Shown here: positions 35,729-62,623 of the stretch, piece by piece
How the letters are laid out: every line of letters starts with the position of its first letter
How positions within the stretch are numbered: position 1 is the stretch's first letter
Sequence record: OQ845957.1
Direction: 5' to 3' (one strand)
Length of the DNA stretch: 64,000 nt
Source: Escherichia phage pEC-M719-6WT.1
The notes under the pieces: generated by a model
The model's input: the letters and a program-made list of their open reading frames with translations, nothing else
Told to the model about the DNA's origin: nothing
Database searches by the model: none
Position numbers and translations under genes: made by a program

Positions 35729-35752
35729 GGGCTGCTTCGGCAGCCTTTTTTA
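35729..35752 (+). terminator. intrinsic terminator
   Basis: GGCTG-CTTCG-GCAGCC hairpin plus TTTTTT. Confidence 0.6.
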
Positions 35753-35812
35753 TTTGTGTTTTGTGCAGAGTAGTGTATAATTACCCCTATGTTTAATAAA
35801 ATAGGAGAACCA

Positions 35813-39305: not shown

Positions 39306-40088
39306 ATGGGTATTGTAAAAGTCATCAAAGGTGATATCTTCGCAGACTTTGAGAAAGGTAAGTTTGATATCATCGGTCACGGTTGTAACTGTATGAATCT
39401 GATGGGTGCAGGTATTGCTGACAAGATTTCTAAGGGCTACCCAAAAGCCTATGAAACTGATGCTGAAGTCTACCGTGTAGCAGGAGGAAGAGAGCATAAA
39501 CCTTGTCAGAAACTGCTTGGTAAACTCTCTGTAGCACGTCTTAAACAAGGCCGTATTGCTAACCTGTACACTCAGTTGAAGACTGGTAAAGATGCTCGCT
39601 ATGATGCTCTTGAGAGCGCTCTGTTGAGCCTTAACCAGTACTGCAAAGTGAATAGACTGAAGAAAGTTGGGCTTCCAATGATTGGTGCAGGGATTGGTGG
39701 GCTTGACCCGAAAGCTGTTGTGGTGATTATGAATCACATCCTGAAAGATGTTGATGTTTACCTTTACGTGTTTGAAGAGGCAATGTTTAATACTCTGTCA
39801 ACATGGGGTAATCACAGTGAGCCACAATACTTTGCAGGTGTAGCCGTTGTCAACGAAGATGGAGTTACCCTCTTCAGGCATCGCCAGTACAAGGTACATC
39901 GGAGTAACCCTCCGGTTGAGCGAATGTCTCTAAGTAACGCTCAAGTTACCCCGCCGTTGAAAGGTAGTATGCAACGTGCAGTGACATTTGGAAGTGAACC
40001 TGATGTGTACATTCTTGCAGCAAATGAGAAAGATGCTGAAGCAATTATAGACATTTCTAATATCAAGTTCTTAGCTGCAAAGAACTAA
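39306..40088 (+). CDS. macro-domain protein (ADP-ribose binding/processing)
   Basis: N-terminal VIKGDIFADF...FDIIGHGCNCMNLMGAGIADKI matches macro-domain core; C-terminal extension. Confidence 0.6.
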   Translation: MGIVKVIKGDIFADFEKGKFDIIGHGCNCMNLMGAGIADKISKGYPKAYETDAEVYRVAGGREHKPCQKLLGKLSVARLKQGRIANLYTQLKTGKDARYDALESALLSLNQYCKVNRLKKVGLPMIGAGIGGLDPKAVVVIMNHILKDVDVYLYVFEEAMFNTLSTWGNHSEPQYFAGVAVVNEDGVTLFRHRQYKVHRSNPPVERMSLSNAQVTPPLKGSMQRAVTFGSEPDVYILAANEKDAEAIIDISNIKFLAAKN

Positions 40089-40157
40089 GAAACTCTGTAG
40101 CATATTCACAATAGACTAAGCCTTTCTTATCTGGTGAATTTTCAGGTAAGGAGGGCT

Positions 40158-40338
40158 TTTTCATTTTAAAATTGTGCAGGTAAAAGTCTGGACAGAAATC
40201 TGTAGAGAAAATTTTGAACTCCAAAGGGAAAATTCATTTTCAATTTGTGCAGGTGGACTCCAAAGAGATTTTTCATTTTCAAAACGTGCAGTCCCGGCGA
40301 GTGTCGGGCAAGAAAAATCATTTTAGAATTGTGCAGGT
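40158..40338 (+). repeat. four direct repeats of TCATTTTNNNAANTGTGCAGGT
   Basis: Copies near 40158, 40229, 40268 and 40314 in the intergenic region ahead of the small-gene array. Confidence 0.7.
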
Positions 40339-40516
40339 AGGTGGGTGCAGGTGGGGATGCCACCATTTCTCACAAGGCTACCACATCTGAAAAGAAAAGT
40401 CAACAGAAAAATTTGTAGTGGATTGAAAAATAATTCTTGATTGTAGTTCTGTTTTGTGATAGTTGCATGTGCCCGTCTCATTACAGTTTTTGCAAAAAAT
40501 ATTTTTAAAAATTTGC

Positions 40517-40545
40517 TTGACCTGTAAAACAAAGGCGTTTAGTAT
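40517..40545 (+). promoter_or_regulatory. sigma70-like promoter (TTGACC-N17-TAGTAT)
   Basis: Hexamers with 17-bp spacer, followed by GC hairpin and CCTAAACTGGAGA leader. Confidence 0.5.
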
Positions 40546-40594
40546 TTGCATCAGACGGGCAAGCAAGCCCACTTCCTAAACTGGAGATTCCAAA

Positions 40595-40801
40595 ATGTTA
40601 TATCAACGCCAATTGATGATTGTAGACAATAACAAGACTAAAAAGCGCCGTTTCTTTATGCTTATCTGTGACGTGTGGCAAAGAATATCAGAAAAAGATT
40701 TTGATAAGTATGTTGATACGTCTATCAAGTCAGATTGTTACTTGACAAATCACACAAGACAGTTTACAAGACATACAGCAATTTACTACTATGACGTTTA
40801 A
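40595..40801 (+). CDS. small hypothetical protein (leader-cassette gene 1)
   Basis: 68 aa; ATG 8 nt after conserved CCTAAACTGGAGA. Confidence 0.4.
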   Translation: MLYQRQLMIVDNNKTKKRRFFMLICDVWQRISEKDFDKYVDTSIKSDCYLTNHTRQFTRHTAIYYYDV

Positions 40802-40813
40802 AAGGTCTTGACA

Positions 40814-40975
40814 ATGATTAAAGAAGACTATGTAATAAAATACAAAGGTAGTGACGGATACACAAAAATAGGTCGCGTCTTCTACCTTTACAAGTCAGTT
40901 ACGGGTAATGACTGCATAGCTCTAACAAATGGCGACAAAATAACCATGAAAGATTTTATAAAAATTATTTCATAA
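40814..40975 (+). CDS. small hypothetical protein
   Basis: 53 aa ORF below track cutoff; no own cassette. Confidence 0.2.
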   Translation: MIKEDYVIKYKGSDGYTKIGRVFYLYKSVTGNDCIALTNGDKITMKDFIKIIS

Positions 40976-41059
40976 AGTACTTTACATGGGGTTTAGAGTT
41001 CGATAGTATAAGCCCCAGATAAAGAGCTTTACCAACAATCCTAAACTGGAGAATCTAAA

Positions 41060-41443
41060 ATGAAAAAATACTACATGCCTAAATTCATCAAAAAAGAAAA
41101 CTTTCGTGGTGCTCTGGAAAAATCTATGGGCGAACAATTCAAAGGCAAAATAATTGTTGTACACGCATATAATTTTAAGTATGATGTAAATGGTAACAAG
41201 ATAAACCACTATAAAGCTACACTGTTAGATGGTACACTCTCAGGAGAAAAGGCTGTTATCCATGCACTTGCAGGACGTGGTAAGACGCTAATCCGTTGCG
41301 ATAAACGCCGCTATCAAGGTAGTGCTTACGGTTATGAGGATGCAATCTATCATCTTGATAATATGGGTTACAACGTGGTAAAAGCTGGAGTATCCCAAAT
41401 GATTGGTAGTGATGGTTACGTAACAATCTTTGAAATTAACTAA
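41060..41443 (+). CDS. small hypothetical protein (leader-cassette gene)
   Basis: 127 aa; conserved leader at 40977-41059. Confidence 0.4.
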   Translation: MKKYYMPKFIKKENFRGALEKSMGEQFKGKIIVVHAYNFKYDVNGNKINHYKATLLDGTLSGEKAVIHALAGRGKTLIRCDKRRYQGSAYGYEDAIYHLDNMGYNVVKAGVSQMIGSDGYVTIFEIN

Positions 41444-41531
41444 TAAAGTGCTTTACATGGGGTTTATAAATTGCTAGTATAAGCCCCAGATAAAGAACTT
41501 TATCCAACAACCTAAACTGGAGATTCAAAAA

Positions 41532-41789
41532 ATGGCTACTATCAAAAACATCATTGTTACTGCAAAATCTCGTGATGATGCTCGCGCAACTGCTAAAAAA
41601 TTAAATGGTAAAGTGGTTGACAATGGTAAAAATTCTAATGTAAGATGGGGTGTAAAGACAGACAAAGAATTAACCTTGAAACATAGCTCTAAAAACCTGT
41701 TTAAAGGTGTACAGACTATCGGTAAAACAAATGTATTTACAAAACAAGGTTACAAAATGCACTTGGCATTAACTGACAATTTAATCTAA
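41532..41789 (+). CDS. small hypothetical protein (leader-cassette gene)
   Basis: 85 aa; conserved leader at 41447-41531. Confidence 0.4.
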   Translation: MATIKNIIVTAKSRDDARATAKKLNGKVVDNGKNSNVRWGVKTDKELTLKHSSKNLFKGVQTIGKTNVFTKQGYKMHLALTDNLI

Positions 41790-41879
41790 AAGTACTTTAC
41801 ATGGGGTTTATAAATTGCTAGTATAAGCCCCAGATAAAGAGCTTTACCACTAAACAATCCTAAACTGGAGAATCTAAAA

Positions 41880-42392
41880 ATGAAATTTGTTGAAAGTACC
41901 TTTGAAGTTCAAAAAGAAAAATTCACCATTATCTATGAGGCAATGAATATTTGTGAGCCTTCCCATTGTGTGGATAACTGGCAATTTACTGATGAGCATA
42001 AAGGCGGGGTTACAATCAAAGTTAAGAATGCAGAACGTAACAGCTACAAATATGCAATTCCCACACATTACACGCTTTCACAGCTTGCCAGTGACTACGC
42101 AAAACAGGGAAGGGATAACCCATCATTGGAAGCTTACAAGAGCTTACAGGATGAGCTAGAAAGGGATTTAGAAGCTAATAGCTATATCTTATATGCCTCA
42201 GTAATTGACGCAGAAGGAAACACGGTTTTAAATAGCTTTTCTCTTGCTTATGCCTTTGATTGGTGCTATCTTGACGGTGAAGATTTAGAGGAAAGATTAA
42301 AAGAGGAAGTAAGCAATTCAGACTCTGAAAAGGAAGTTTTAGAGCACTTGGAAGATTTAAAAGACAGTGTGATGAATATCTTTAATATCTAA
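41880..42392 (+). CDS. small hypothetical protein (leader-cassette gene)
   Basis: 170 aa, acidic C-terminus; conserved leader at 41790-41879. Confidence 0.4.
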   Translation: MKFVESTFEVQKEKFTIIYEAMNICEPSHCVDNWQFTDEHKGGVTIKVKNAERNSYKYAIPTHYTLSQLASDYAKQGRDNPSLEAYKSLQDELERDLEANSYILYASVIDAEGNTVLNSFSLAYAFDWCYLDGEDLEERLKEEVSNSDSEKEVLEHLEDLKDSVMNIFNI

Positions 42393-42485
42393 AATAAATT
42401 GCTTTACATGGGGTTATCAGGCTGATAAGATAGCCCCAGATAAAGGAGATTTATCACTAAACAATCCTAAACTGGAGATTCTAAA

Positions 42486-42782
42486 ATGTTTATCGCTGCA
42501 AATGTACGTTCCAAATTGAGCAAGCTTTTACAAGATATCAAATTTGTAGAATCTATGCGCCGCACTCATGGAGTAACGGAGTGGTATCATGGGAAAATAA
42601 ATGGTAAAGAAGTTGTTATTTGTATTTGGAATTTTTGTAAAGAATACAAAAAGCCGTTGCTTCAGGTGGATATCTATGATAATGCAAATAAAAGTTCTGT
42701 TAAGTCTACAAGGGATATGATAGATTCTTTTGAGATTAGCCACACTGGTAGACTATTTCACAAAGGAAAATCATCATGCTAA
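42486..42782 (+). CDS. small hypothetical protein (leader-cassette gene)
   Basis: 98 aa; conserved leader at 42395-42485. Confidence 0.4.
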   Translation: MFIAANVRSKLSKLLQDIKFVESMRRTHGVTEWYHGKINGKEVVICIWNFCKEYKKPLLQVDIYDNANKSSVKSTRDMIDSFEISHTGRLFHKGKSSC

Positions 42783-43099
42783 TTTCTGGAGTTGCCTTAC
42801 TCATTGCTATTTTAGCACTGTATAAATCATGTAAAGCACATCATGCGGCAAGTGATGCAATCACAAGACAAATCAATAATAAACTTGTGACGTCCTTTCT
42901 AGAGCGTTTAAACGTGGAACAATTGAAGCGCTTAGAGATGGGCTTCAGATTCAAGGCTGATACGTATCAGGTGGGCGACATTCTAAGCGGTGATTTTCAA
43001 TTGATTGATGATTATAACGCTTTATTAAATGCTTTAAATATCAGTGACTTGAAAGATTATCATGCTGTTATTGTTCACGAAATAAGCAAACGAAAATAA
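42776..43099 (+). CDS. small membrane-anchored protein
   Basis: 107 aa, N-terminal hydrophobic helix; overlaps upstream stop. Confidence 0.35.
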   Translation: MLISGVALLIAILALYKSCKAHHAASDAITRQINNKLVTSFLERLNVEQLKRLEMGFRFKADTYQVGDILSGDFQLIDDYNALLNALNISDLKDYHAVIVHEISKRK

Positions 43100-43114
43100 A
43101 TTACTAAAAAGGGA

Positions 43115-43143
43115 TTGCAAGACCAAACCAAAATAAGTAAAGT
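43115..43143 (+). promoter_or_regulatory. sigma70-like promoter (TTGCAA-N17-TAAAGT)
   Basis: Conserved -10 block TAAAGTACT shared across cassettes. Confidence 0.45.
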
Positions 43144-43194
43144 ACTTATCAACGGGGCAAGCAAGCCCCAATAACCTAAACTGGAGATTCAAAA

Positions 43195-43596
43195 ATGACT
43201 ACTAATCATGATATCGCTATTCTGAAAGCACGTTTGACCGTTAACCGCATTAATGCTATCACGTCAACCGCACCGGATGAGGTTTTACATAGCATTATCG
43301 GTAAAGTTCAAGGTGTAATTTTAGACGTAGAAAACATCAAAAATTCACTTGCAAACGTTGCAAATGGTGATACACTTGACGGCGCACAATATGAAATGGC
43401 TGATATGTTATCCAAATCAAAAGTGCTGAATAAAGAACTTGACTTGAAAATGTTTAGATTTGCTGTGAAAGTGTGGTTATCTGTTGAGTTCGGTGCAAAT
43501 TTTGCAATTTCTGATTTCTTTGCAACATGGTTGCAACGTAACCTGTCAAAACAAGACTTTGAAGATATCTGCGACACAATTTACGCAGAACTTTAA
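43195..43596 (+). CDS. small hypothetical protein (leader-cassette gene)
   Basis: 133 aa. Confidence 0.4.
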   Translation: MTTNHDIAILKARLTVNRINAITSTAPDEVLHSIIGKVQGVILDVENIKNSLANVANGDTLDGAQYEMADMLSKSKVLNKELDLKMFRFAVKVWLSVEFGANFAISDFFATWLQRNLSKQDFEDICDTIYAEL

Positions 43597-43603
43597 AAAA
43601 CGT

Positions 43604-43632
43604 TTGACACTAATTTTTAAATAGATTAAAGT
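43604..43632 (+). promoter_or_regulatory. sigma70-like promoter (TTGACA-N17-TAAAGT)
   Basis: Consensus -35 with 17-bp spacer. Confidence 0.55.
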
Positions 43633-43684
43633 ACTTATCAACGGGGCAAGCAAGCCCCAACAATCCTAAACTGGAGATTCAAAA

Positions 43685-44242
43685 ATGAAATGCTTTCATG
43701 GAACTACTCAAGAAAACTTTGCAAACCTGCTAAGTGGTGGAGAAAAACCTTCAGGGGCTTGGAATTGCACTGATAGTGATGGATGCTTTTATGTTTATCC
43801 TGAAAGCAAGCTTGACGACGTGGAAAACTTGGACGCAGAACAAATAACTGATGAGGGTATTAGAAACGCTCTGGATAGTGCAAGTATCACAGCGGCTTTC
43901 CAGATGAAATCACAAAAAATAGTTATCTTAGAGCTTGACATTCCAGAGGATGAATTACAAGATGACTGGAGTTGTGAGAACATGAGCGATGTTGCAAGCT
44001 TTACAGAATACTTTGATAAAGCTTGGATTAAAAAGATTTACACAACTGAATTTAATGCTATGTATGCACCGTTTTTTGTACCTAACTTGAACAATAGAAA
44101 TCTTGGCTATGTGCCTGATGAATTACGTAACATTGCTGTAATGGTTCAACGTAGCGATGAGATGAATAATGTCTATTGTGGCATTTTCGAAAATATGCAA
44201 TCTAACATCACAGAAAGCAATATAAACGACTTTACAGCATAA
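43685..44242 (+). CDS. small hypothetical protein (leader-cassette gene)
   Basis: 185 aa. Confidence 0.4.
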   Translation: MKCFHGTTQENFANLLSGGEKPSGAWNCTDSDGCFYVYPESKLDDVENLDAEQITDEGIRNALDSASITAAFQMKSQKIVILELDIPEDELQDDWSCENMSDVASFTEYFDKAWIKKIYTTEFNAMYAPFFVPNLNNRNLGYVPDELRNIAVMVQRSDEMNNVYCGIFENMQSNITESNINDFTA

Positions 44243-44305
44243 ACCATAGAATCATACCAGATAACCATAAAAGCCCCGCATAGGGGCTTACAGGAGCTTT
44301 AAAAG

Positions 44306-44536
44306 ATGCTTACAACAATCTATCTTATCCTTTCCTTGTCTAATGGTGCTGAATGGGACTTCAAAGGGCTTGAAGAGTTCACAGGAAGCAAGGAAAACGC
44401 CATCGCAGCCTGCCAAATAGCAAGACTTGACTACCCCGCCAGTGATGATATACAATGCTACTTCAAAACAGAGGATGAGGATTCTATTTATTTTGATAGT
44501 GTAGATGGTCAATATGAAATTCTTATAGAAAAATAG
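44306..44536 (+). CDS. small hypothetical protein
   Basis: 76 aa; preceded by hairpin and CAGGAG RBS rather than the conserved cassette. Confidence 0.35.
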   Translation: MLTTIYLILSLSNGAEWDFKGLEEFTGSKENAIAACQIARLDYPASDDIQCYFKTEDEDSIYFDSVDGQYEILIEK

Positions 44537-44565
44537 TTGACACTGAAAAACAAAACAAGTAAAGT
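44537..44565 (+). promoter_or_regulatory. sigma70-like promoter (TTGACA-N17-TAAAGT)
   Basis: Consensus -35 with 17-bp spacer. Confidence 0.55.
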
Positions 44566-44618
44566 ACTCATCAACGGGACAAACAAGCCCCTAACAATCC
44601 TAAACTGGAGATTCTAAA

Positions 44619-44960
44619 ATGGCATACGTAACAGTTATTACTGACAAAGAAAATTCCTCTTGGTCTACTCAGGTTAGCGACAAAATGACACCTATGCAGT
44701 GTCTCAAGTACTTTGAACAATGGAACCGTGGAGAAGACGTAAGCCCATTTCAAGTAATGAAAGTTGTACACGTTGATAATGACGGCAACAAAACAACTCT
44801 TAACACTGAATACTATACAACACGCTTTGAAACTAGAGCGGAAACCATGAAACAATTACGTGAAAAGGGTTATAGCCATATAGCGGGGTTAATCTGGAAT
44901 GATTTACTCCAACAACAAAGATTAACCTATGTCAAGCCTGAAAAAATCTTTATAAGCTAA
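44619..44960 (+). CDS. small hypothetical protein (leader-cassette gene)
   Basis: 113 aa. Confidence 0.4.
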   Translation: MAYVTVITDKENSSWSTQVSDKMTPMQCLKYFEQWNRGEDVSPFQVMKVVHVDNDGNKTTLNTEYYTTRFETRAETMKQLREKGYSHIAGLIWNDLLQQQRLTYVKPEKIFIS

Positions 44961-45144
44961 TCAGTAACTTACAAAAATCTTTGAAAAAACTGTTGACATT
45001 ACCCCTTGACAATAGTACATTTGTTCGAGGGGGTTTATCTAAAAGGATTCACTTAAAAGATTCTTTATAGATAAGCCTTGCAATTGCTTAAAAGATTCTG
45101 TATAGTTCTCTCAGTTGGTTAACTTCCTAAACTGGAGACATAAA

Positions 45145-45264
45145 ATGATTATCCTGTATATGATGGTACTCTCAGTAGTGACACCTTTCCTGCTTTTAGT
45201 AGCTAGTGAAATAGATGATAAAATCTTTGATAAAAAGCTTGCAAAGGTAAATCAAAACAAGTAA
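45145..45264 (+). CDS. tiny hydrophobic protein (leader-cassette gene)
   Basis: 39 aa, below ORF-track cutoff; ATG 7 nt after CCTAAACTGGAGA; single predicted TM helix. Confidence 0.3.
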   Translation: MIILYMMVLSVVTPFLLLVASEIDDKIFDKKLAKVNQNK

Positions 45265-45267
45265 AGT
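45239..45267 (+). promoter_or_regulatory. sigma70-like promoter (TTGCAA-N17-TAAAGT)
   Basis: Hexamers with 17-bp spacer. Confidence 0.45.
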
Positions 45268-45330
45268 ACTCATCAACGGGAGGGAATAAAACCTCCCAAT
45301 CTGATAAAATCCTAAACTGGAGAATCTAAA

Positions 45331-45858
45331 ATGAACAAGTCCACAGCAATCAACACTATCCGCTCGAAAGATGTAATGAAAAAACCTGTGAAAGACACTT
45401 TCGAATTTACTCTTAAAGATAAGTTGTTTGCAGTCATCACAAGAGGGGAAGATAAGAAATATTACATACATCGCCCAAATCAACAAATGTTAACAGCTAA
45501 CAACTTTATGAAAGCTGTTGCAATGATTCTACCGGACTATCTGGCTATTGTTGCAGAGATTCACGAAATGGCTATCAAATCAACTAAAAACGAGCTAAAC
45601 CGTTACAAAATGGCTTACGAGCGCTCTATCAAGTCTCATAATCTTTTTATTGCAATTCATCATACAGGGATGTATGCTATGGGAACGGGTAACCAACAAT
45701 ACCCGCTCTATGATGTAGAAAATCTCTTTACGGGGGATTATCCAACAACTAGATTCAAAGTAACGTTAGGGGAAGCATTGACTAGAGGCATCCGACTTTA
45801 CGAACAATCTCTAAAAAACTTAGAAAATTCACTTGACGAAACGCTAGCGAGTCTTTAA
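45331..45858 (+). CDS. small hypothetical protein (leader-cassette gene)
   Basis: 175 aa. Confidence 0.4.
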   Translation: MNKSTAINTIRSKDVMKKPVKDTFEFTLKDKLFAVITRGEDKKYYIHRPNQQMLTANNFMKAVAMILPDYLAIVAEIHEMAIKSTKNELNRYKMAYERSIKSHNLFIAIHHTGMYAMGTGNQQYPLYDVENLFTGDYPTTRFKVTLGEALTRGIRLYEQSLKNLENSLDETLASL

Positions 45859-45861
45859 AGT
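45833..45861 (+). promoter_or_regulatory. sigma70-like promoter (TTGACG-N17-TAAAGT)
   Basis: Hexamers with 17-bp spacer, overlapping 3' end of upstream gene. Confidence 0.45.
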
Positions 45862-45918
45862 ATCTATCAAGGGGAGGGAATGACCTTCCCCAACAATCCT
45901 AAACTGGAGACTTGAAAA

Positions 45919-46182
45919 ATGGAACACGTAGAACTGATTGAACTGTTAAAGATTGCCACCGTATCAGAAGATGTTTCTTTATTCCACCGTGTAGAATCCG
46001 ATATGTTTACAGGTGACTTTATCAAAGAGTCTTACGAAGTAGTCGGGTTTAAAGATAATCAAGTATTTGGGTTTTATGACTTGACAAAATCACAAGCAAT
46101 TGTTAAATATGACGTTTTATCTTGTGAGATTATCACAAAATATAATGAGAAAAGACTTGCAACCTATGCAGAGATGAATTAA
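45919..46182 (+). CDS. small hypothetical protein (leader-cassette gene)
   Basis: 87 aa. Confidence 0.4.
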   Translation: MEHVELIELLKIATVSEDVSLFHRVESDMFTGDFIKESYEVVGFKDNQVFGFYDLTKSQAIVKYDVLSCEIITKYNEKRLATYAEMN

Positions 46183-46246
46183 TATTATTTTCAACGGGGA
46201 GGGTAAAACCTCCCAATCTAAAAATCCTAAACTGGAGACTTCAAAG

Positions 46247-46498
46247 ATGGCAACTATCCGCGCAACTGTAAACACTTTTGGTTTTAACGTGTTAGATGTT
46301 AAGTTCGACATGGTAGGCACTGGTGATGCTTTTGGAATGGTTGAAATGTGCCTAAAGGCAACTATTCAGGACTATAAACCAACTGAAAACTTCTGGAAGG
46401 GAGTAAAACAGGAAGTCTTAAAAGATGGCGTGACGTCTTACTATTGGGGTGATTCTCTTATCACGCTTTACCATCAAAAATTTGGTTATAATGACTAA
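46247..46498 (+). CDS. small hypothetical protein (leader-cassette gene)
   Basis: 83 aa; last gene of array. Confidence 0.4.
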   Translation: MATIRATVNTFGFNVLDVKFDMVGTGDAFGMVEMCLKATIQDYKPTENFWKGVKQEVLKDGVTSYYWGDSLITLYHQKFGYND

Positions 46499-46540
46499 CA
46501 AGACGCCGCAACGGGGCAAATAGCCCCAGACCCTATACAA

Positions 46541-46561
46541 GCCCCTTCAATGGGGCTTTTT
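46541..46561 (+). terminator. intrinsic terminator closing the small-gene array
   Basis: GCCCC-TTCAAT-GGGGC hairpin plus TTTTT. Confidence 0.6.
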
Positions 46562-48089
46562 AACGTCTATCTAAACCCTTCCTAGAATCTTACCAGACAT
46601 TTAGAGCAATAACTCTATAGCTTACTCTATAATCCCTTATCAAATCAACTAAAATATAAGCCCATAACCCCAGAAAGGGGATGGCATTCTAATTGGTATT
46701 GTTACCAATCCCTTAAACGCTCTATAACGCTCTATAACGGCTTATCATCTCAACTTAAGCAATCATATTAACCCGCTCTTAAAAGCCCTTTATAGAGCTT
46801 CCTAGAGCCTTAAAAGAATCTTATAAGGGTGTAAGCTTTATCATCTCGTTAGTCTCTTGTGAATATCTAAACGGGGCTATGAGATAGGACTCTATAGTGG
46901 TTATAAAGTATCGTAAAAGCTAGCCCCCTTAACATTTCTTTAACAAAATCTTAACAATCCCTACATAGTTATGCTTATTAGCAACTTGTTAGCACCTTGT
47001 TAAATCCTTGTTAAGACCATGTTACAACCTTGTTAGACTCTTTGGAGTACCCTTAAAAGCCCCTGTAAAGGGCTATAAAGAGCTATACAGTCAGTTGGGC
47101 TATAGTTACTATGGAGAACCTTAGAAATAGCTGTATAGAGCTATACAGGGCTTTTAAGAGGTATGTTTAGAGAATCACTGAGAGGGATAGGGAGCGATAA
47201 GAGAAGAGATAGTGACCATGTTAATAGACTGTTAAAAAGGTTAAGAACTTATTAGCCACTTGTTAATTATCTTAACAAAATAACTTTTAAATTTAACATG
47301 TTAGCATCTTGTTAGACCCTTGTAAGAACTGTTAAGCTCTTGTTACATCCTTGTTAGTTCTGTTAAGAGACTGTTAAGAACTATCGAGACTTGTTAGAGA
47401 CTTGTTAGAGACTTGTTAGAGTTGTAAAGAAATTGTTAATGATATTTTAAAATTTTGCAAAGGGTATGTTACAAGGCTGTTAAGGGCTACCAAGCAGATA
47501 TACACCCTTTGTAGATATTTTTCAGATTCTCTACAAACCCTAAATAAACACTTGACAACTCTATTTTATAAAAATTTTATAGAACTGAATAACTATCTAT
47601 ACACTATCTTCTATAAAACAGGTAAATACAGGCTTATAAGATACCTTGTTAATACCGTGTTAGACCTTGTAGAATAAGCCTTAGAAGGGAATACCTGTTT
47701 AGTGCTATATAACAGTCTATATAGAGGGTTAGTAGAACCTAGTGAACATCCTATAGAGAGTCACATAGCTTACATAATGGGTTACTGTTAAGTAACACAG
47801 ATAACCTAGAGATTAAGATGGGTATAGGGGCTTCTAAGGGGCTATGAAGAGATGGTTAAGGTGATTGTATAGGTTTGGAAGAGGATTGCTTAGAGGGCTA
47901 TTTAGAAGGGTTATACAGAGAGCTATAGAGACTCACTGTTAAGGGACTAAGATACTATATAGTACTATATAACTATATAGAGAGTAAGGTTAAGTAGGTT
48001 GTTTAGAAGGGCTAGATATTTTATCACATATCATGGTGACCCAAGATGAACGAAGTGAATCCAAATTTTATAAAAATATTTTACTCAAT
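46562..48089. repeat. ORF-free repeat island with phased YTGTTAR motifs, GCTATACAG-type palindromes and a tandem CGCTCTATAA duplication
   Basis: No ORF of 60 aa or more on either strand; tandem 11-bp units at 46985-47040; 12-13 phased units at 47296-47432; bounded by convergent terminators. Confidence 0.75.
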
Positions 48090-48124
48090 AAAAAAGCCCC
48101 TATGAGACAGACTCTATTAGGGGC
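48090..48124 (-). terminator. intrinsic terminator for minus-strand block
   Basis: Hairpin GCCCC..GGGGC with T-run on minus strand (A-run on plus). Confidence 0.5.
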
Positions 48125-48133
48125 TGTATAGTT

Positions 48134-57894: not shown

Positions 57895-57971
57895 CTCTGT
57901 TTAGCTCAGTTTGGTAGAGCGTTCCGTTTGGGGCGGTAAGGCCAGAGGTTCAAGTCCTCTAACAGAGACCA
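57895..57971 (+). tRNA. tRNA-Pro (anticodon TGG, tentative)
   Basis: 7-bp acceptor CTCTGTT/AACAGAG, T-arm AGAGG-TTCAAGT-CCTCT, encoded CCA. Confidence 0.55.
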
Positions 57972-57978
57972 AATTAAT

Positions 57979-58053
57979 GTCGTAGAAGGCAAATGGTTAG
58001 CCACCTGACCTTCAATCAGTTGCTCGCGGGTTCGAATCCCGTCTACGACTCCA
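57979..58053 (+). tRNA. tRNA-Glu (anticodon TTC, tentative)
   Basis: Acceptor GTCGTAG/CTACGAC, T-loop TTCGAAT, CCA end. Confidence 0.5.
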
Positions 58054-58138
58054 AATTTGACAGAAGACCAAATACAGCAAACAACTTTTACTTTTCGCGC
58101 ATAGAAAACATAAAAAGCTTGGTCTGGTCATTAAGAAT

Positions 58139-58215
58139 TGCGGGTATAGAGAAAGGGCGTCTCACATGTCTCATTAGCATGGTATCGGCAGGTTCGACTC
58201 CTGCACCCGCCTCCA
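58139..58215 (+). tRNA. tRNA with CAT anticodon (Met/Ile2/initiator unresolved); 1:72 mismatch
   Basis: Anticodon arm CATGT-CTCATTA-GCATG, T-arm GCAGG-TTCGACT-CCTGC. Confidence 0.5.
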
Positions 58216-58296
58216 AATTTACAGAAGACCGTTTACAGCAATTCAAACAATTTTATCGGAAAATTAAAATGAATACGGTCTGGTAATGTTAAACAT

Positions 58297-58373
58297 GGTT
58301 AGGAAGCACATAAGGCATGTGCGGTCGGCTGTTAACCGAATGGCACAGGGTTCGAATCCCTGACTAACCGCCA
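58297..58373 (+). tRNA. tRNA-Asn (anticodon GTT)
   Basis: Anticodon loop CTGTTAA, T-arm CAGGG-TTCGAAT-CCCTG, CCA end. Confidence 0.6.
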
Positions 58374-58383
58374 AAATTTAAAT

Positions 58384-58471
58384 GCGTCGTTATCCCGTAG
58401 ATGGAAGCGGTGGTGACTGTAAATCACTTGTCATTACGACTCGGTAGGTTCGACTCCTTCACGGCGCACCA
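58384..58471 (+). tRNA. tRNA-Tyr (anticodon GTA), class II
   Basis: 88 nt with long variable arm; anticodon loop CTGTAAA. Confidence 0.6.
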
Positions 58472-58477
58472 AACAAA

Positions 58478-58555
58478 GGTTATGTAGTTTAATTTGGTTA
58501 AAATACCTCCCTGTCACGGAGGAAGATGTGGGTTCAAGTCCCATCATAACCGCCA
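58478..58555 (+). tRNA. tRNA-Asp (anticodon GTC)
   Basis: Acceptor GGTTATG/CATAACC; anticodon arm CCTCC-CTGTCAC-GGAGG. Confidence 0.65.
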
Positions 58556-58975
58556 ATTTTGAGAGGGCTTTTTAGCCCCTCCCTTAAAGAGTTCTTACGA
58601 GTATTCTTTAAAGGAGCAGAAGACCAAATTCAGCAAGTTACTTAAAATTTCAAGCCAATTTAATTTTGAAAAATTTAAAACTTGGTCTGGTTCCAACAAA
58701 TTTACAGAAGACCGTTTACAGCAATTTAAATCTATTTCTCTCAAAAAGAAAAGGTGAAGGTTCGATTCCTTCACACGTTACGGCGTGTTGGTGTAATGGA
58801 AGCACTTTAGATAATAACGGTCTGGTAATCCTCTTTGCAGTGACTTATGGAGCTAATATATCGTCCCATGAGTGCCGATGAATTTCCTTAGCATGATTCT
58901 AGATTAGCTTAATAGGAAATGACTCTACAAGCCCTTTAGCAAGGTTTGCGTAGGTTACTGCAAAGATGATTTAAT

Positions 58976-59051
58976 GGGAGTGTAGCAGAATGGTGATGCG
59001 GCAGACTTTTAATCTGACAGGCGACGGGTTCGAATCCCTCCACTCCTACCA
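58976..59051 (+). tRNA. tRNA-Lys (anticodon TTT)
   Basis: Anticodon loop CTTTTAA; T-loop TTCGAAT; weak T-stem. Confidence 0.5.
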
Positions 59052-59055
59052 ATAT

Positions 59056-59132
59056 GGTTCAGTCGCAGATAAGGTAATGCAAGGGTTTCATAAGCCCTAT
59101 GAATGTGGGTTCGATTCCCACCTGAACCTCCA
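59056..59132 (+). tRNA. tRNA with CAT anticodon (Met or Ile2)
   Basis: Perfect acceptor GGTTCAG/CTGAACC; anticodon arm AGGGT-TTCATAA-GCCCT; T-arm GTGGG-TTCGATT-CCCAC. Confidence 0.65.
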
Positions 59133-59134
59133 AT

Positions 59135-59209
59135 TGTGGGTTAGCATAAATGGTAATGCAAACGGCTGATAACCGTTAGAAGAGGGTTCGATACCCTCAC
59201 CTACAACCA
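59135..59209 (+). tRNA. tRNA-Ile (anticodon GAT)
   Basis: Anticodon arm AACGG-CTGATAA-CCGTT; T-arm GAGGG-TTCGATA-CCCTC. Confidence 0.65.
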
Positions 59210-59224
59210 ATTTCAATAAAGTTG

Positions 59225-59253
59225 TTGACATTGAGATGTGACTACTTTATAGT
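59225..59253 (+). promoter_or_regulatory. sigma70 consensus-like promoter (TTGACA-N17-TATAGT) inside tRNA cluster
   Basis: Near-consensus hexamers with exact 17-bp spacer. Confidence 0.6.
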
Positions 59254-59486
59254 TACCTTAGTTTTCGTTAGCGTAGCGTCTATTTTGCAAACTTAAAAAT
59301 AAATGCAAACGATAATGTTTTTCTGGCAGTAGCTTAATAGGCTAAACACCAGTGAGGTCTTCCAATCCCTCATCAAAGAATTTGGCGTACTAGCCCACGG
59401 TATGATTAATAAAGTGGGCAACATTCTAAAGGGTATCCCTTATGGGGCTTGGCTTAAATGCAATGAGTACCCTTTAAAATGTTAAT
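59254..59486 (+). ncRNA. candidate structured ncRNA downstream of internal promoter
   Basis: ~230 nt with no ORF and no canonical tRNA fold; nested stems GCCCAC..GTGGGC and AAGGGTA..TACCCTT. Confidence 0.3.
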
Positions 59487-59563
59487 GCACCCTTAGTTCA
59501 ACTGGACAGAGCAAATGACTTCTAATCATTGAGTTACAGGTTCGAATCCTGTAGGGTGTTCCA
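59487..59563 (+). tRNA. tRNA-Arg (anticodon TCT)
   Basis: Anticodon arm AATGA-CTTCTAA-TCATT; T-arm ACAGG-TTCGAAT-CCTGT. Confidence 0.65.
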
Positions 59564-59623
59564 ATTTAATGGTCAAGACAACACTAGTAAGTCATCTTCG
59601 ATACATGTTAAGAGATGAACGAA

Positions 59624-59691
59624 AGTCGGAAAGTTGCTGAAGGTTAGCTACCTTCGATAGTAAGTAGGTTCGACTCCTACCTTGGCTGCCA
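59624..59691 (+). tRNA. aberrant tRNA-like element (~68 nt; D-arm not resolvable)
   Basis: Good T-arm GTAGG-TTCGACT-CCTAC and CCA end, stem GAAGG-TTAGCTA-CCTTC, but no standard D-arm or full acceptor pairing. Confidence 0.3.
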
Positions 59692-59833
59692 AATAGTTAG
59701 CAGATTGCTTAGACGACCTTAACGGGTCTCCGTGTAAGGAGGTGGTCTGTATCTCATGTTTCCAGAGCATGTAAAATATTCTGAGAAGGGGCTTTACAGT
59801 GTTGTGATAATACGGTAAGCTTCGAATTATAGT

Positions 59834-59916
59834 ATGGGACGATGTTAAGACACTAAGGCATGTGCGTAAGCCTCCAAAACTTACTCAAAGGGGTTCGAAT
59901 CCTCCGTCCCATGCCA
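59834..59916 (+). tRNA. atypical tRNA-like element (possible anticodon CCA/Trp; ~8-nt insertion between acceptor and D-stem)
   Basis: Perfect acceptor ATGGGAC/GTCCCAT, T-loop TTCGAAT, CCA end; body 83 nt without a class II variable arm. Confidence 0.35.
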
Positions 59917-59929
59917 AAGTCTTATTAGG

Positions 59930-60017
59930 GGTAGGTAGCGGCTAATGGAAGCCAAACTGTCTTGAAAACAGTTGCCACTGTAGAGATACGGTGAGGGTTC
60001 GACTCCTTTACTTACCG
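59930..60017 (+). tRNA. tRNA-Ser (anticodon TGA), class II
   Basis: Anticodon arm ACTGT-CTTGAAA-ACAGT; long variable arm; CCA not encoded. Confidence 0.6.
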
Positions 60018-60019
60018 CC

Positions 60020-60272
60020 TAATAAGATTTGAAATCCACGCTACTGTTATTACGTGCGTTCGGTTTCCTCTAACGTGTATTGGCGTACACGGCACTGATG
60101 GAGCACCTAGTAGGTGTCACGGAGAAGAGATAGTATCAAGCTCTCCAAAGGTTCTAGTCACCGGATTAAACAAGACTATGCAAAGACTGATTAGGTCTTT
60201 TTAGAGAACTTCTGAGGCAAACTATACCATTGTTGCTTTGGGGTCTTGGAAGTTCTCTACAAAGATTTTAAT
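60020..60272 (+). ncRNA. candidate structured ncRNA / spacer within tRNA cluster
   Basis: ~250 nt without ORF or tRNA fold between two tRNAs; multiple local stems. Confidence 0.25.
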
Positions 60273-60350
60273 GGGAGATTGACGGTAATTGGTAAACCTA
60301 CCATCCTTAGAAGTTGGTGTTTGAGGGTTCGAATCCCTTGTCTCCTACCA
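60273..60350 (+). tRNA. tRNA, class I length, anticodon TAG (Leu anticodon; isotype uncertain)
   Basis: Acceptor GGGAGAT/GTCTCCT, anticodon arm CCATC-CTTAGAA-GTTGG, discriminator A. Confidence 0.45.
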
Positions 60351-60357
60351 AATTAAT

Positions 60358-60433
60358 GCAGGTGTAGCAAAATGGTTATGCGGCTGACTCTTAATCAGTA
60401 AGACGATGGGTTCAATTCCCTCCACCTGTACCA
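60358..60433 (+). tRNA. tRNA-Lys (anticodon CTT, tentative)
   Basis: Anticodon arm GCTGA-CTCTTAA-TCAGT; T-loop TTCAATT. Confidence 0.5.
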
Positions 60434-60439
60434 AACATT

Positions 60440-60515
60440 GGGGATGTAGTTTACATGGTTAAAACGTAAGTTTTGCAAACTTAAGTACAGGGTTCAATTC
60501 CCTGCTTCTCCACCA
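60440..60515 (+). tRNA. tRNA-Ala (anticodon TGC)
   Basis: Anticodon arm TAAGT-TTTGCAA-ACTTA; T-arm CAGGG-TTCAATT-CCCTG. Confidence 0.6.
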
Positions 60516-60521
60516 ATTAGT

Positions 60522-60596
60522 GCATCCATAGTTTAAACGGGAAAATTACAGTCTTCCAAACTGAGGTTGAGGGTTCGATTCCCTCTGGATGCTCCA
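60522..60596 (+). tRNA. tRNA-Gly (anticodon TCC)
   Basis: Perfect acceptor GCATCCA/TGGATGC; anticodon loop CTTCCAA. Confidence 0.6.
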
Positions 60597-60610
60597 AATT
60601 AAGGTGTGAT

Positions 60611-61024
60611 ATGAAAATATGTAGTACTTGCAGAATACCAAAAGATGAAAGCTTATTCCATAAGAATAAGAACAAGAAAGATGGTCTTCAAAGTCAATGC
60701 AAAGACTGTGCAAGACTTCGTGATGCAAAGAGTTATCAAGCAAATGATAGAAGGAAAGAGTCTATTAAAAGCACTCGTAACTTCAAGAGAGAGTATAACA
60801 AGGCTCTAGCTAGAAGGTACAAAGCTTTATGTAAATGTCATATATGTGGTGAGAAAGAGCCAGTTGCACTGGATTTACACCATACAGACCCTTCCAAGAA
60901 AGATTTGAATCCTGCATCGCTTTATTCATACTCCACAAAAAGATTAAAAGATGAAATCAGAAAGTGTATTGTCTTGTGCGCTAACTGTCACAGAAAAGTA
61001 CATGCTGGTATTATTAAAGTTTAA
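60611..61024 (+). CDS. HNH endonuclease (zinc-finger type), inserted between tRNA genes
   Basis: HNH core LDLHHTDPSKK...CANCHRKVHAG plus CxxC pairs. Confidence 0.6.
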   Translation: MKICSTCRIPKDESLFHKNKNKKDGLQSQCKDCARLRDAKSYQANDRRKESIKSTRNFKREYNKALARRYKALCKCHICGEKEPVALDLHHTDPSKKDLNPASLYSYSTKRLKDEIRKCIVLCANCHRKVHAGIIKV

Positions 61025-61025
61025 T

Positions 61026-61102
61026 GCTGCTTTCGTATAATTGGCTATTACACATCCCTTGTAAGGATGGAGATGCGGGTTCAAGTCCTGTGAGCAGCAC
61101 CA
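61026..61102 (+). tRNA. tRNA-Thr (anticodon TGT)
   Basis: Anticodon arm CATCC-CTTGTAA-GGATG; acceptor GCTGCTT/GAGCAGC. Confidence 0.6.
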
Positions 61103-61198
61103 ATTTTGAGGTCAAGTGAAAGACCGCTTGAGTCAACTGAAGACCGTAACAAATTCCACGGAGTTGAGTTAGCGGCACAACTTCAGACCTCTTTCAAA

Positions 61199-61273
61199 GC
61201 TCGCTTAGTTTATATGGTAAAGCCCCATCCTTACAAGTTGGTGAAGAAGGTTCAAGTCCTTCAGCGAGTACCA
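61199..61273 (+). tRNA. tRNA-Val (anticodon TAC)
   Basis: Anticodon arm CCATC-CTTACAA-GTTGG (same stem as 60273 element); T-arm GAAGG-TTCAAGT-CCTTC. Confidence 0.55.
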
Positions 61274-61274
61274 A

Positions 61275-61352
61275 GTTCCAGTATCCCAATTGGCAGAGGA
61301 TGCAAGCTCAAACCTTGTATTAGTGACGGTTCGAATCCGTCTTGGAACACCA
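61275..61352 (+). tRNA. tRNA, class I length, anticodon CAA (Leu anticodon; isotype uncertain)
   Basis: Anticodon arm GCAAG-CTCAAAC-CTTGT; T-arm GACGG-TTCGAAT-CCGTC; discriminator A. Confidence 0.45.
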
Positions 61353-61369
61353 AATTTTAGGAGATTCCT

Positions 61370-61582
61370 ATGAAGCCTTATGGTAGACACGGTAAAGTTG
61401 AAATTGCAAGTTGTGGTTGCTGTGCTTCTCACGATGGTGAAGAAGATTACTACAAGTGGCGTACAGACCATCGTAGACGCTTTCTCAGAAGAGATAAGAA
61501 GAAAGCTAGACAGGAATCTCGAAAAGATATTGCAGAATTAGTTCAAATGGATAGAGCAGCAACCTACGAAGTTGTCTGTTAG
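61370..61582 (+). CDS. small Cys-rich basic protein (doubtful; 3' end overlaps tRNA-Arg)
   Basis: 70 aa with GGAGA RBS but ~50-nt overlap with a well-formed tRNA. Confidence 0.2.
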   Translation: MKPYGRHGKVEIASCGCCASHDGEEDYYKWRTDHRRRFLRRDKKKARQESRKDIAELVQMDRAATYEVVC

Positions 61583-61608
61583 GGGTTCGAATCCCTTATT
61601 CTGCACCA
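61532..61608 (+). tRNA. tRNA-Arg (anticodon ACG)
   Basis: Perfect acceptor GCAGAAT/ATTCTGC; anticodon arm GCAAC-CTACGAA-GTTGT. Confidence 0.65.
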
Positions 61609-61628
61609 ATTTTAAAGAGGCTATTTAA

Positions 61629-62186
61629 ATGAGATATTTGAAGTATGCTTCATGGATTTTCCTAGCTTTGCTAGAGCCATTTGCAGCAATCTTAGCAGTT
61701 ATCTTAGCACCTTTCGTAGTTCCATTCTACAATGAGAAGAAAGGTCACTTACCTTTTGGATTCAGATGGATGGAGACTTATGATAATCCAATTGACGGTG
61801 ACAAAGGCCACGTTGAACGATGGGCTAAGATTCGAAAGATTGGCAAGCTCGGTGTTTATATGCAGAGAGTTGGATGGCTCTGGAGAAACAAAGCTTATAA
61901 CTTCTCTTACCATGTATTAGGGAGAGATGTAAAAGATGTTACTAAGTGGAAAGGTAATATCAACGTAAGTTCTAACCCTGAAGATAATCAGACAGGTTAT
62001 CTCCTGATGTGGAACAGTAATGCTTGGGGATTATTCGCTTTTATACCGTCAATTAAAATCTTTGGTAAACAGTTTTACTGGAGAATTTATGTTGGATGGA
62101 AGCTTAAAAGTGTTGTCCCAGAAGAAAGAGCATTCTCAAGGGAAAGAATTATGTTGGCATTCTTTATTCATCCACTAAGAAAGTAA
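61629..62186 (+). CDS. membrane protein
   Basis: 185 aa; N-terminal hydrophobic segment IFLALLEPFAAILAVILAPFVVPF; AAAGAGG RBS. Confidence 0.35.
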   Translation: MRYLKYASWIFLALLEPFAAILAVILAPFVVPFYNEKKGHLPFGFRWMETYDNPIDGDKGHVERWAKIRKIGKLGVYMQRVGWLWRNKAYNFSYHVLGRDVKDVTKWKGNINVSSNPEDNQTGYLLMWNSNAWGLFAFIPSIKIFGKQFYWRIYVGWKLKSVVPEERAFSRERIMLAFFIHPLRK

Positions 62187-62194
62187 AGATTTAA

Positions 62195-62270
62195 AGGGGA
62201 TTAGTTTACAAGGTTAAAACCTCGGTCTTTGAAATCGAAGAAGTTGGTTCAATTCCAACATCCCCCGCCA
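62195..62270 (+). tRNA. tRNA-Gln (anticodon TTG)
   Basis: Anticodon arm TCGGT-CTTTGAA-ATCGA; perfect T-arm GTTGG-TTCAATT-CCAAC; 1:72 mismatch. Confidence 0.6.
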
Positions 62271-62272
62271 AT

Positions 62273-62351
62273 GCTCCATTACTCCAATTGGCAGAGAGGC
62301 CAGACTTAAAATCTGTGTTATGTATCGGTTCGAATCCGATATGGAGTACCA
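62273..62351 (+). tRNA. tRNA, class I length, anticodon TAA (Leu anticodon; isotype uncertain)
   Basis: Anticodon loop CTTAAAA; T-arm ATCGG-TTCGAAT-CCGAT; discriminator A. Confidence 0.45.
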
Positions 62352-62357
62352 AATATT

Positions 62358-62433
62358 AGCAGTGTAGCATAACTGGCAATGCTCCAGCCTCTGAAGCTGA
62401 AAGATTAAGGTTCAAATCCTTACACTGCTGCCA
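62358..62433 (+). tRNA. tRNA-Gln (anticodon CTG, tentative)
   Basis: Perfect acceptor AGCAGTG/CACTGCT; anticodon loop CTCTGAA. Confidence 0.5.
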
Positions 62434-62464
62434 CTTCTAAGGGTTCTTACGAGAGTCCTTAAAT

Positions 62465-62541
62465 GTGGCCTTATCATAAATGTATAATGACCCATGCTGT
62501 GAACATGGTCTATACGGGTTCGATTCCCGTAGGTCACCCCA
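62465..62541 (+). tRNA. tRNA-His (anticodon GTG)
   Basis: Anticodon arm CCATG-CTGTGAA-CATGG perfect; T-arm ACGGG-TTCGATT-CCCGT. Confidence 0.65.
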
Positions 62542-62548
62542 ATTTTAA

Positions 62549-62623
62549 TAGCTCAATTAGCTTATATGGTTAAAGCGCGTGTCTGAAAAACATGAGAACA
62601 GGGTTCAAATCCCGATGGGCTAC
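62549..62623 (+). tRNA. tRNA-Phe (anticodon GAA)
   Basis: Acceptor TAGCTCA/TGGGCTA; anticodon loop CTGAAAA; weak T-stem. Confidence 0.5.

Follow-up and report, generated by a model that had tools for sequence, protein, structure and literature searches.

Four direct copies of a bipartite motif, TCATTTT-N6-GTGCA, lie on the plus strand of phage pEC-M719-6WT.1 (OQ845957.1), with starts at 40161, 40234, 40273, and 40318, in a gene-free gap of 506 bp (40089-40594) between two plus-strand genes. Positions are those of the window, by which we mean the whole stretch of DNA analyzed, 64,000 nucleotides in length. From the pattern of the sequence, we suggest that the repeats are most likely putative docking sites for a DNA-binding protein and not promoters. 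The reading as a whole, in which the array would bind a protein and act in cis, as a boundary or regulator of the small early genes that follow it, is in our judgment about evenly balanced between right and wrong, and a specific role as a roadblock or insulator, taken by itself, is less probable than that. The original prediction had placed four direct repeats of about 22 bp ahead of the small-gene array, in an intergenic region of 430 bp. The four repeats are real; however, the consensus was one base too long, the copies having 21 positions, and a literal search with the 22-position consensus recovers copy 1 alone, shifted in register and with three mismatches. The predicted starts were 3-5 nt too far to the left, and the region is 506 bp long rather than 430 bp. 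The four copies are the following.

40161-40181, plus strand: copy 1, 21 bp, TCATTTTAAAATTGTGCAGGT; full site 40155-40181, G-N-W4-TCATTTT-AAAATT-GTGCAGGT, core 40161-40178, 43.5 bits
40234-40254, plus strand: copy 2, 21 bp, TCATTTTCAATTTGTGCAGGT; full site 40228-40254, TCATTTT-CAATTT-GTGCA, core 40234-40251, 45.0 bits
40273-40293, plus strand: copy 3, 21 bp, with a deviant 3' end, TCATTTTCAAAACGTGCAGTC; full site 40267-40293, TCATTTT-CAAAAC-GTGCA, core 40273-40290, 34.7 bits
40318-40338, plus strand: copy 4, 21 bp, TCATTTTAGAATTGTGCAGGT; full site 40312-40338, TCATTTT-AGAATT-GTGCA, core 40318-40335, 36.8 bits

The distances from start to start are 73, 39, and 45 bp. Each site spans about 24-27 bp and consists of a G at -6, four A/T positions at -4 to -1, the block TCATTTT, a 6-bp spacer that is mostly A/T, and the block GTGCA. 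In copy 3, the 3' flank is GTC and not GGT. The sites are non-palindromic and share a single orientation. All four exact matches to the core in the 64-kb window fall within 175 bp; the chance expectation for 12 fixed bases in 2 × 64 kb, calculated from 4^-12, is about 0.008. A position weight matrix was built from the copies, which score 35-45 bits in the window, where the next best site has 12.6 bits. The complete 86-kb Felix O1 genome likewise contains four copies, with 36-43 bits, and a next best site with 12.5 bits. A scan of 2.9 million viral contigs for a pattern of two adjacent copies gave only 30 matching contigs, of 51-94 kb. In relatives found by means of the macro-domain protein encoded next to the gap, the array is present at a fixed offset, and it is absent from two more distant phages whose macro-domain protein is 40% identical. 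Searches of plasmids and of 5,426 E. coli genomes gave no similarity to the array.

The source phage is a Felix O1-like myophage, and its nearest relative is Suspvirus SUSP2. A 3-kb stretch around the array matched 255 phage records, all from the Felix O1 group (Ounavirinae), with SUSP2 as the best match at 87% identity. The gap that holds the array is among the largest non-coding gaps, and it is bordered by the following genes.

39306-40088, plus strand: gene for the macro-domain protein, a 260-aa ORF, the last gene before the gap
40595-40801, plus strand: first small early gene 3' of the gap
40595-46498, plus strand: right-terminal small-gene array, from the ORF lists, with the four repeats as its inner bound

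The macro-domain protein matches Pfam Macro with E = 5.8e-8 and PHROG 335 'phosphatase' with E = 6e-99. It is annotated as 'phosphatase' or Tk.4-like. With the exception of this protein, the ten proteins tested around the array are all assigned to PHROGs of unknown function.

The gap was matched in 289 phage records, with at least 80% of its length covered in 237, and the identity is 86-90% among the full-length matches listed. The flanking genes have only 78-79% identity to those of Felixounavirus, so the non-coding gap is better conserved than the genes on either side of it. In Kolesnikvirus, which comprises phages of Erwinia and Hafnia, blastn detects only the part of the window from 40233 to 40335, corresponding to copies 2-4. 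An alignment of the array from twelve phages of four genera showed that the order and orientation of the sites are kept in Felixounavirus, Suspvirus, Mooglevirus, and Kolesnikvirus. The spacings are 73/39/45 in Felixounavirus and Suspvirus, 75/41/45 in Mooglevirus, and 37/37/39 in Kolesnikvirus. Copy 2 has been lost in phage Si3, and hence no single copy is indispensable. Over the 48 core positions, identity to the window is 98% for Felixounavirus, 100% for SUSP2, and 97% for Mooglevirus; outside the core, the values for Felixounavirus and Mooglevirus are 65-84% in the N6 spacers, 69-84% in the linkers, and 61-79% in the remainder of the gap. Site statistics were compiled from 65 loci; these comprise 30 different arrays, 25 of them with four sites, and 68 different site sequences. 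Among the 68 sequences there is almost no variation in the core, an A or T occupies every position from -4 to -1 without exception, and a G is found at -6 in 58. No other non-coding element that we found, apart from the terminal repeat, is as strictly conserved as the array. The sites thus show a pattern of purifying selection. We take the combination of invariant cores with drifting spacers and linkers, with moderate confidence, to be the footprint of a putative recognition site at the DNA level. This pattern, seen across four genera, suits the option in the original prediction that the repeats may be binding sites for a phage or host regulator. That prediction was to count as refuted if, among other things, the motif were absent both elsewhere in the genome and in relatives; the genome indeed has no further copy outside this locus, but every relative examined carries the motif.

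The other features of the gap are as follows.

40118-40158, plus strand: strong intrinsic terminator hairpin, a homologue of Felix O1 t13, with 17 pairs followed by TTTCATTTTA (terminator scan)
40218-40226, plus strand: 5' box of unit 2, ACTCCAAAG
40257-40265, plus strand: 5' box of unit 3, ACTCCAAAG
40293-40308: short GC hairpin, CCCGGCGAGTGTCGGG
40341-40400: variable mosaic segment immediately 3' of copy 4
40386-40445: conserved A+T-rich block, AAAAGTCA...TTGAAAAATAATTCTTGATT, GC 27-33%, columns 333-383 of the alignment
40517-40545, plus strand: sigma-70-type promoter of the first small early gene, TTGACC-17-TAGTAT (promoter scan)

The T-tract of the terminator extends into copy 1. The t13 element is among the terminators in the Felix O1 genome paper (PMC3185647). 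The duplicated 5' box and the GC hairpin, both of which had been predicted, are readily seen in the sequence at the positions given above. The 5' box is clade dependent, being ACTCCAAAG in enterobacterial phages and GGTCTGG in Erwinia phages. The 3' half of the GC hairpin, GTCGGGCAAG, is the 5' box of unit 4, and the hairpin is not kept in Mooglevirus, where ACTCCAAAG is found in its place. Within the mosaic segment there is an extra GTGCAGGT half-motif at 40345-40352. Most relatives have a C/T-rich tract in the alignment in place of this segment; SUSP2 is 99% identical to the window up to 40340 and 38% identical over 40341-40400, and phage PHB11 is 97% identical over 40341-40400. The promoter is bracketed by an inverted repeat, 40470-40481 and 40550-40561, and the annotation of phage ASO1B has a promoter at the equivalent position. 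The array lies 180-360 bp upstream of this promoter, which is the nearest one.

Could the gap encode a protein or a functional RNA? Frames are open on both strands, and ORFs are annotated over the array in several records (bas63_0096/0097, Mordin_126, Moogle115, Sf13_gp58, and also in Felix O1), so that the sites might be part of small minus-strand ORFs, or might act at the RNA level as a repeat non-coding RNA or protein sponge. A coding function was rejected, as the frames and their ends vary by clade and no start is conserved. The 37- and 41-bp spacings disrupt the reading frame, and the core bases are invariant at all three codon positions. Thus, the annotated ORFs that overlap the array in Felix O1, Mordin, Moogle, Sf13, and Bas63 are most likely artefacts. 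As to an RNA, there is no promoter for it, an Rfam search of the array gave no match near the gathering score, and RNAalifold applied to the alignment gave a covariation term of 0.04, with support for the terminator helix only. We therefore regard a function in RNA or in such small ORFs as highly improbable, the least probable of the explanations discussed here.

The original prediction had offered a stage-specific promoter class as a further option, and noted that the repeats do not resemble sigma-70 promoters. The second point was confirmed, as a consensus scan found no plus-strand sigma-70 promoter within 40160-40500. The first did not hold up: the motif is confined to one locus, both in the window and in the 86-kb Felix O1 genome, which means that it is not a promoter class. 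The repeats might still be four tandem non-sigma-70 promoters for a host RNA polymerase modified by the phage; a second wave of transcription would then start from them and enter the small genes or, on the minus strand, yield an antisense or non-coding RNA. In phage T7, A1, A2, and A3 are tandem early promoters ahead of the early block, and the array, with several co-oriented, asymmetric elements of about 20 bp before an early block, recalls this arrangement. However, the array has no -35 and -10 hexamers of the T7 kind, and its motif is common to no other promoter in the genome. On the plus strand, there is no -10-like element at a fixed offset from the core, copy 3 has none at all, and the sequences at a fixed offset 3' of GTGCA vary between copies and genera. 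On the minus strand, each site reads TGCAC-N5-NAAAAT, in which NAAAAT is -10-like, but no usable -35 accompanies it, and copy 1 of Felix O1 (TCATTTC) loses the NAAAAT. Furthermore, the promoter scan shows that a canonical promoter already serves the small-gene block and that each gene there has its own promoter. The timing of transcription in Felix O1 was stated as not known in the 2010 genome paper (PMC3185647), which leaves some room for such promoters; on balance, we consider them very unlikely.

A replication origin is another explanation, in which the repeats would be iterons bound by a phage initiator, the A+T-rich block would melt, and the promoter would activate or prime replication. 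Iteron arrays such as the lambda origin, with its four O-protein sites, and those of P1, F, and RK2 have 3-5 co-oriented repeats of about 17-22 bp that are unique to the replicon and strongly conserved, with an A+T-rich stretch and a promoter adjoining. The present array is similar in having 3-4 co-oriented, genome-unique, strictly conserved repeats of 18-27 bp in one of the largest non-coding gaps, together with a conserved block of 27-33% GC and a strong promoter less than 200 bp away. However, the spacing of 37-75 bp is wider than the approximately 22 bp typical of iterons and has no helical phasing. The GC-skew has its minimum at about 10.5 kb and its maximum at about 47.5 kb and runs through 40 kb without an inflection, although the skew is confounded by the direction of transcription. 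The least stable duplex is at 47.2-48.0 kb and at 10.8 kb, whereas the block adjoining the array reaches only the 95th-98th percentile. Within 40089-40594, there is no DnaA box with one mismatch or fewer, and no recognizable initiator-like gene is adjacent, the neighbors being the macro-domain protein and small proteins of unknown function. Replisomes of the T7-like type use transcription-primed origins without iterons. The replisome genes are T7-like (PMC3185647; annotation). The array of phage Bas63 is at 64.1-64.5 kb, and a knockout screen described the whole of 46-66 kb in this phage as uniformly non-essential in laboratory hosts (bioRxiv 10.1101/2024.10.10.617714), which counts against an origin. 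The better origin candidates in the window are at 10.8 kb and 47.5 kb, and we judge it unlikely that the array is an origin, though this explanation carries more weight than that of tandem promoters.

The position of the array relative to the genome ends is also conserved. The ends are predicted from published or annotated direct terminal repeats (DTRs) that were aligned to the window.

46923-47493: DTR homologue, the predicted physical genome ends

The DTR of UAB_Phi87, 608 bp, was determined by Bal31 digestion and run-off sequencing (PMC4837284), and its sequence aligns to 46931-47493. A 581-bp repeat was annotated in Pr103Blw from PhageTerm (PMC8303462), and it aligns to 46923-47491. The gap is similar in size to reported DTRs, which had led us to suspect that the array itself is a genome end or DTR; this was rejected, as both DTRs map to 46923-47493. 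Downstream of 46498, there is a 1.6-kb gene-free stretch that contains the DTR homologue, followed by minus-strand genes. The array starts about 6.8 kb before the DTR, and its distance to the predicted right end amounts to about 8% of the genome. At five other loci, the distance from array to DTR is 5.0-7.0 kb with the relative orientation kept, and the array always points toward the DTR. Phage phiEa21-4 is laid out in the same way: the array is followed by 6.7 kb of small genes and then by a 1.2-kb gap rich in TGTTAAGA repeats. Thus, the right-terminal block of small early genes is delimited on its inner side by the array. The record of Erwinia phage BoyaciRG1 has identical ends of 1232 bp that contain the array, but these are probably an assembly overlap, because their boundary falls within the macro-domain gene and, in phiEa21-4, the DTR-like gap of TGTTAAGA repeats is located about 7 kb downstream.

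This location raises the possibility that the array is a signal for genome entry or for the terminus, which would pause or stop DNA transfer in the manner of the T5 injection stop signal, or would serve as a strand-specific nick or packaging checkpoint. The array would then be the inner edge of the DNA that enters first, and only the terminal small-gene block would be expressed at first. In support, the array consistently adjoins the inner end of the terminal block, at a distance of 5-7 kb from the DTR and about 6-8% of the genome from the right end. It is also, like the T5 injection stop signal, repeat-rich non-coding DNA that is better conserved than the neighboring genes (bioRxiv 10.1101/866236). 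The T5 region, Repeat Region 3 of the left terminal repeat, is similarly cis-acting and untranslated and is located at the inner edge of the terminal small early genes, about 8% from the genome end. However, the T5 region is 1.2-1.7 kb long, is part of a 10-kb terminal repeat, and contains eight DnaA boxes as well as palindromes and many kinds of repeat, whereas here there is a single four-site array that lacks a cluster of DnaA boxes and lies outside the 0.6-kb DTR (about 570-608 bp). Our literature searches found no report of two-step transfer for Felix O1-like phages (Ounavirinae), and transcription of the small genes runs toward the end. We assign an entry or terminus signal only a small chance. 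In its more specific form, by analogy with T5, the right-terminal 5-8% (the DTR and the small-gene block) would enter and be expressed first, and the array would be the stop or pause signal, held by a protein until an early product releases it. The protein might come from the host, given that phages of Escherichia, Salmonella, Citrobacter, Erwinia, and Hafnia all carry the motif unchanged. This version has, at best, a slender chance of being correct.

We rank a boundary or regulatory role first among the possible functions, by a modest margin, because the array is placed after the terminator of the upstream operon and before the first early promoter. The loss of a copy tolerated in Si3 and the description of the Bas63 segment as non-essential also favor this role. 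In the mechanism that we propose, a sequence-specific protein would recognize the four sites on double-stranded DNA. The two invariant blocks of a site have their centers about 12 bp apart, which makes contact with two successive major grooves possible, and either one protomer or an asymmetric dimer could make these contacts on one face of the helix. With 3-4 sites at intervals of 37-45 bp, or of 73-75 bp where a unit has decayed, several protomers could assemble into one nucleoprotein complex, with the upstream operon's intrinsic terminator on one side and, on the other, the first sigma-70 promoter of the small-gene block. This complex might act in cis as a roadblock or insulator against read-through from upstream, or might nucleate a switch that turns the early block off or on. 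The sites are 180-360 bp from the promoter, which makes it unlikely that they act as a classical operator. Likewise, the spacings of 37, 39, 41, 45, and 73-75 bp are not all multiples of the helical turn, which argues against strict cooperativity on the same face.

What protein might bind the sites? The sole recognizable helix-turn-helix (HTH) regulator in the window is an XRE-type protein (4468-4767, minus strand, Pfam HTH_3). It is found in 258 records, and its identity is about 62% between Suspvirus and Felixounavirus, so that it diverges much faster than the sites; a tblastn search at E <= 1e-3 gave no match in the Erwinia phage records. This protein is therefore a poor candidate. Since the motif is unaltered in phages of five host genera, the binder may be either a very conserved core protein of the phage or a conserved host protein. 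The one match to the IHF consensus, at 40061-40073, is at chance frequency, and a check by eye for CRP, Fur, Fis, LexA, sigma-E, sigma-32, sigma-54, marbox, and Chi sequences gave no convincing match.

The arrays bound by AraC/MelR, OmpR/PhoB, and P2 Cox/186 Apl also consist of non-palindromic, bipartite sites of about 18-20 bp in several direct copies, which build a higher-order complex. The TTTTCATTTT half of the present motif presumably resembles the first half-site of the OmpR site C1 (TTTACATTTT), which we treat as a lead only. In contrast to the present array, which is 180-360 bp away, those arrays are at or just upstream of their promoter. The GTGCA half has no counterpart in the AraC, OmpR, or Cox-type consensus sequences, and no protein of these types was found in the phage. 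An array of direct repeats for protein binding is of a familiar kind, and it appears that the present instance and its motif have not been described. The Felix O1 genome paper, comparative papers on Felixounavirus, and broader searches yielded no description of the array. The Felix O1 genome paper lists other repeats and t13, but not these four (PMC3185647).

Felix O1-like phages are widely used in Salmonella typing and biocontrol and are candidates for therapy. We found no description in the literature of a replication origin or of DNA entry for this group, and the array offers a concrete, easily mutated handle on the timing of transcription, the origin, or DNA entry. It also flags ORFs that several database records annotate wrongly. 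When the genome collection was scanned for the two-copy pattern, ten matches were obtained, which include 21-bp and 42-bp tandem repeats with a TCATTTT-N6-GTGCA core in metagenome-assembled genomes of Prevotellaceae and Ignavibacteriales. These repeats are located in chromosomal gaps, and the neighbors scanned are housekeeping genes. As many families of tandem repeats exist, a few chance matches are expected, and we draw no conclusion from these repeats.

The array additionally marks a recombination junction, and it coincides with the break point of several metagenome assemblies. In one sample, four metagenome contigs stop at 66-226 bp beyond copy 4, and the Andreotti record starts just after copy 4. 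These were considered as physical ends, but they are probably breaks in the assembly graph, since the end points are imprecise and fall in a variable segment next to sequence common to many co-occurring strains. We rejected a connection of the motif with the tails of terminators, since GTGCAG follows just one of these, located after rIIB.

Comparison with related phages places a recombination junction immediately 3′ of copy 4, the last of the co-oriented TCATTTT-N6-GTGCA copies that make up the four-repeat array, at 40341-40400. The identity to SUSP2 (Suspvirus), the closest relative, is 99% as far as 40340 and then 38% over 40341-40400, a segment that is 97% identical to Felixounavirus PHB11. 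The segment after copy 4 is occupied in most relatives by the C/T-rich tract CCCCTCTCCCCCTCTTACTCCCCCTCTCCCC, and the window and PHB11 have a different sequence in its place. The complement of this tract contains four G-runs, which could form a G-quadruplex.

Several database entries end close to the array. The IMG/VR contigs L050, L051, L064, and L065, all from sample 3300045988, end 66-226 bp past copy 4. For the phage records with ends near the array (Andreotti and BoyaciRG1; MN850610.1, OR125561.1), the Andreotti isolate record starts about 40 bp past copy 4, and the BoyaciRG1 record has identical 1232-bp ends that include the array. These ends probably arose during assembly, at a sequence common to many strains. 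Less probably, they reflect a physical discontinuity, such as a nick.

Regions of the window relevant to the predicted genome ends and to a candidate replication origin.
46499-48133: gene-free stretch of 1.6 kb at the meeting point of two convergent gene blocks (+ and −)
46923-47493: homologue of the direct terminal repeat, by alignment to the terminal repeats that were mapped by experiment in UAB_Phi87 and Pr103Blw
10719-10969: gene-free gap flanked by two diverging operons, the DNA polymerase operon (−) and one on the + strand

Because of the alignment with these two mapped repeats, the physical ends of the phage genome are predicted to lie within 46499-48133. This stretch is rich in TGTTA/CTTGT repeats, with a TGTTA density of 15.9 per kb vs a background of 1.9 per kb, and contains the least stable duplex of the window. 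The second least stable duplex is found in 10719-10969, together with the GC-skew minimum and TTAAAAG-type tandem repeats at 10859-10931. By repeats, skew, and duplex stability, 10719-10969 makes a stronger candidate for the replication origin than the array does.

Inverted repeat at the first early promoter, and a possible repressor.
40470-40481 / 40550-40561: inverted repeat of 12 nt that brackets the first early promoter
4468-4767 (−): Cro/C1-type HTH protein of 99 aa (Pfam HTH_3, E = 2e-8)

The arms of the inverted repeat co-vary among phages, being GTCT/AGAC in the window and GTT/AAC in ASO1B. The promoters of later cassettes are likewise embedded in a stem, GGGG..TTA/TAAGCCCC. This promoter-in-stem layout recalls the promoter-plus-stem-loop cassettes described for T4-type phages. 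The HTH protein, annotated in relatives as 'transcriptional regulator', could be the repressor of the early promoters that have such palindromes. The 258 records that carry it belong to Felixounavirus, Suspvirus, and Mooglevirus, and no match was detected in Erwinia phages.

A weak fifth copy of the array motif follows the terminator downstream of rIIB.
35742-35768 (Felix O1 3511-3542): TTATTTG-TGTTTT-GTGCAG

This copy has two core mismatches and is kept in Felix O1, where its weight-matrix score is 12.5 bits; a TATAAT is located just downstream. No other terminator tail within the window is followed by GTGCA.

Arrays of TCATTTT-N6-GTGCAA, which has the bipartite core of the phage array, also occur in metagenome-assembled genomes of Prevotellaceae (L078, L080, L081, L085) and in one of Ignavibacteriales (L079, L082, L083). 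These are chromosomal, intergenic tandem repeats of 21 bp (or 42 bp), present at several loci per genome, and the adjacent genes that were scanned, in L079 and L081-L083, are housekeeping genes. This bacterial repeat family is probably unrelated to the phage array. The window has a tandem repeat of its own at 5606-5694, composed of CACCAAACCA / ACCAT units with up to 15 copies of the 5-mer. As in other Felix O1-like phages, 24 tRNA genes are clustered on the + strand, at 57895-63554.
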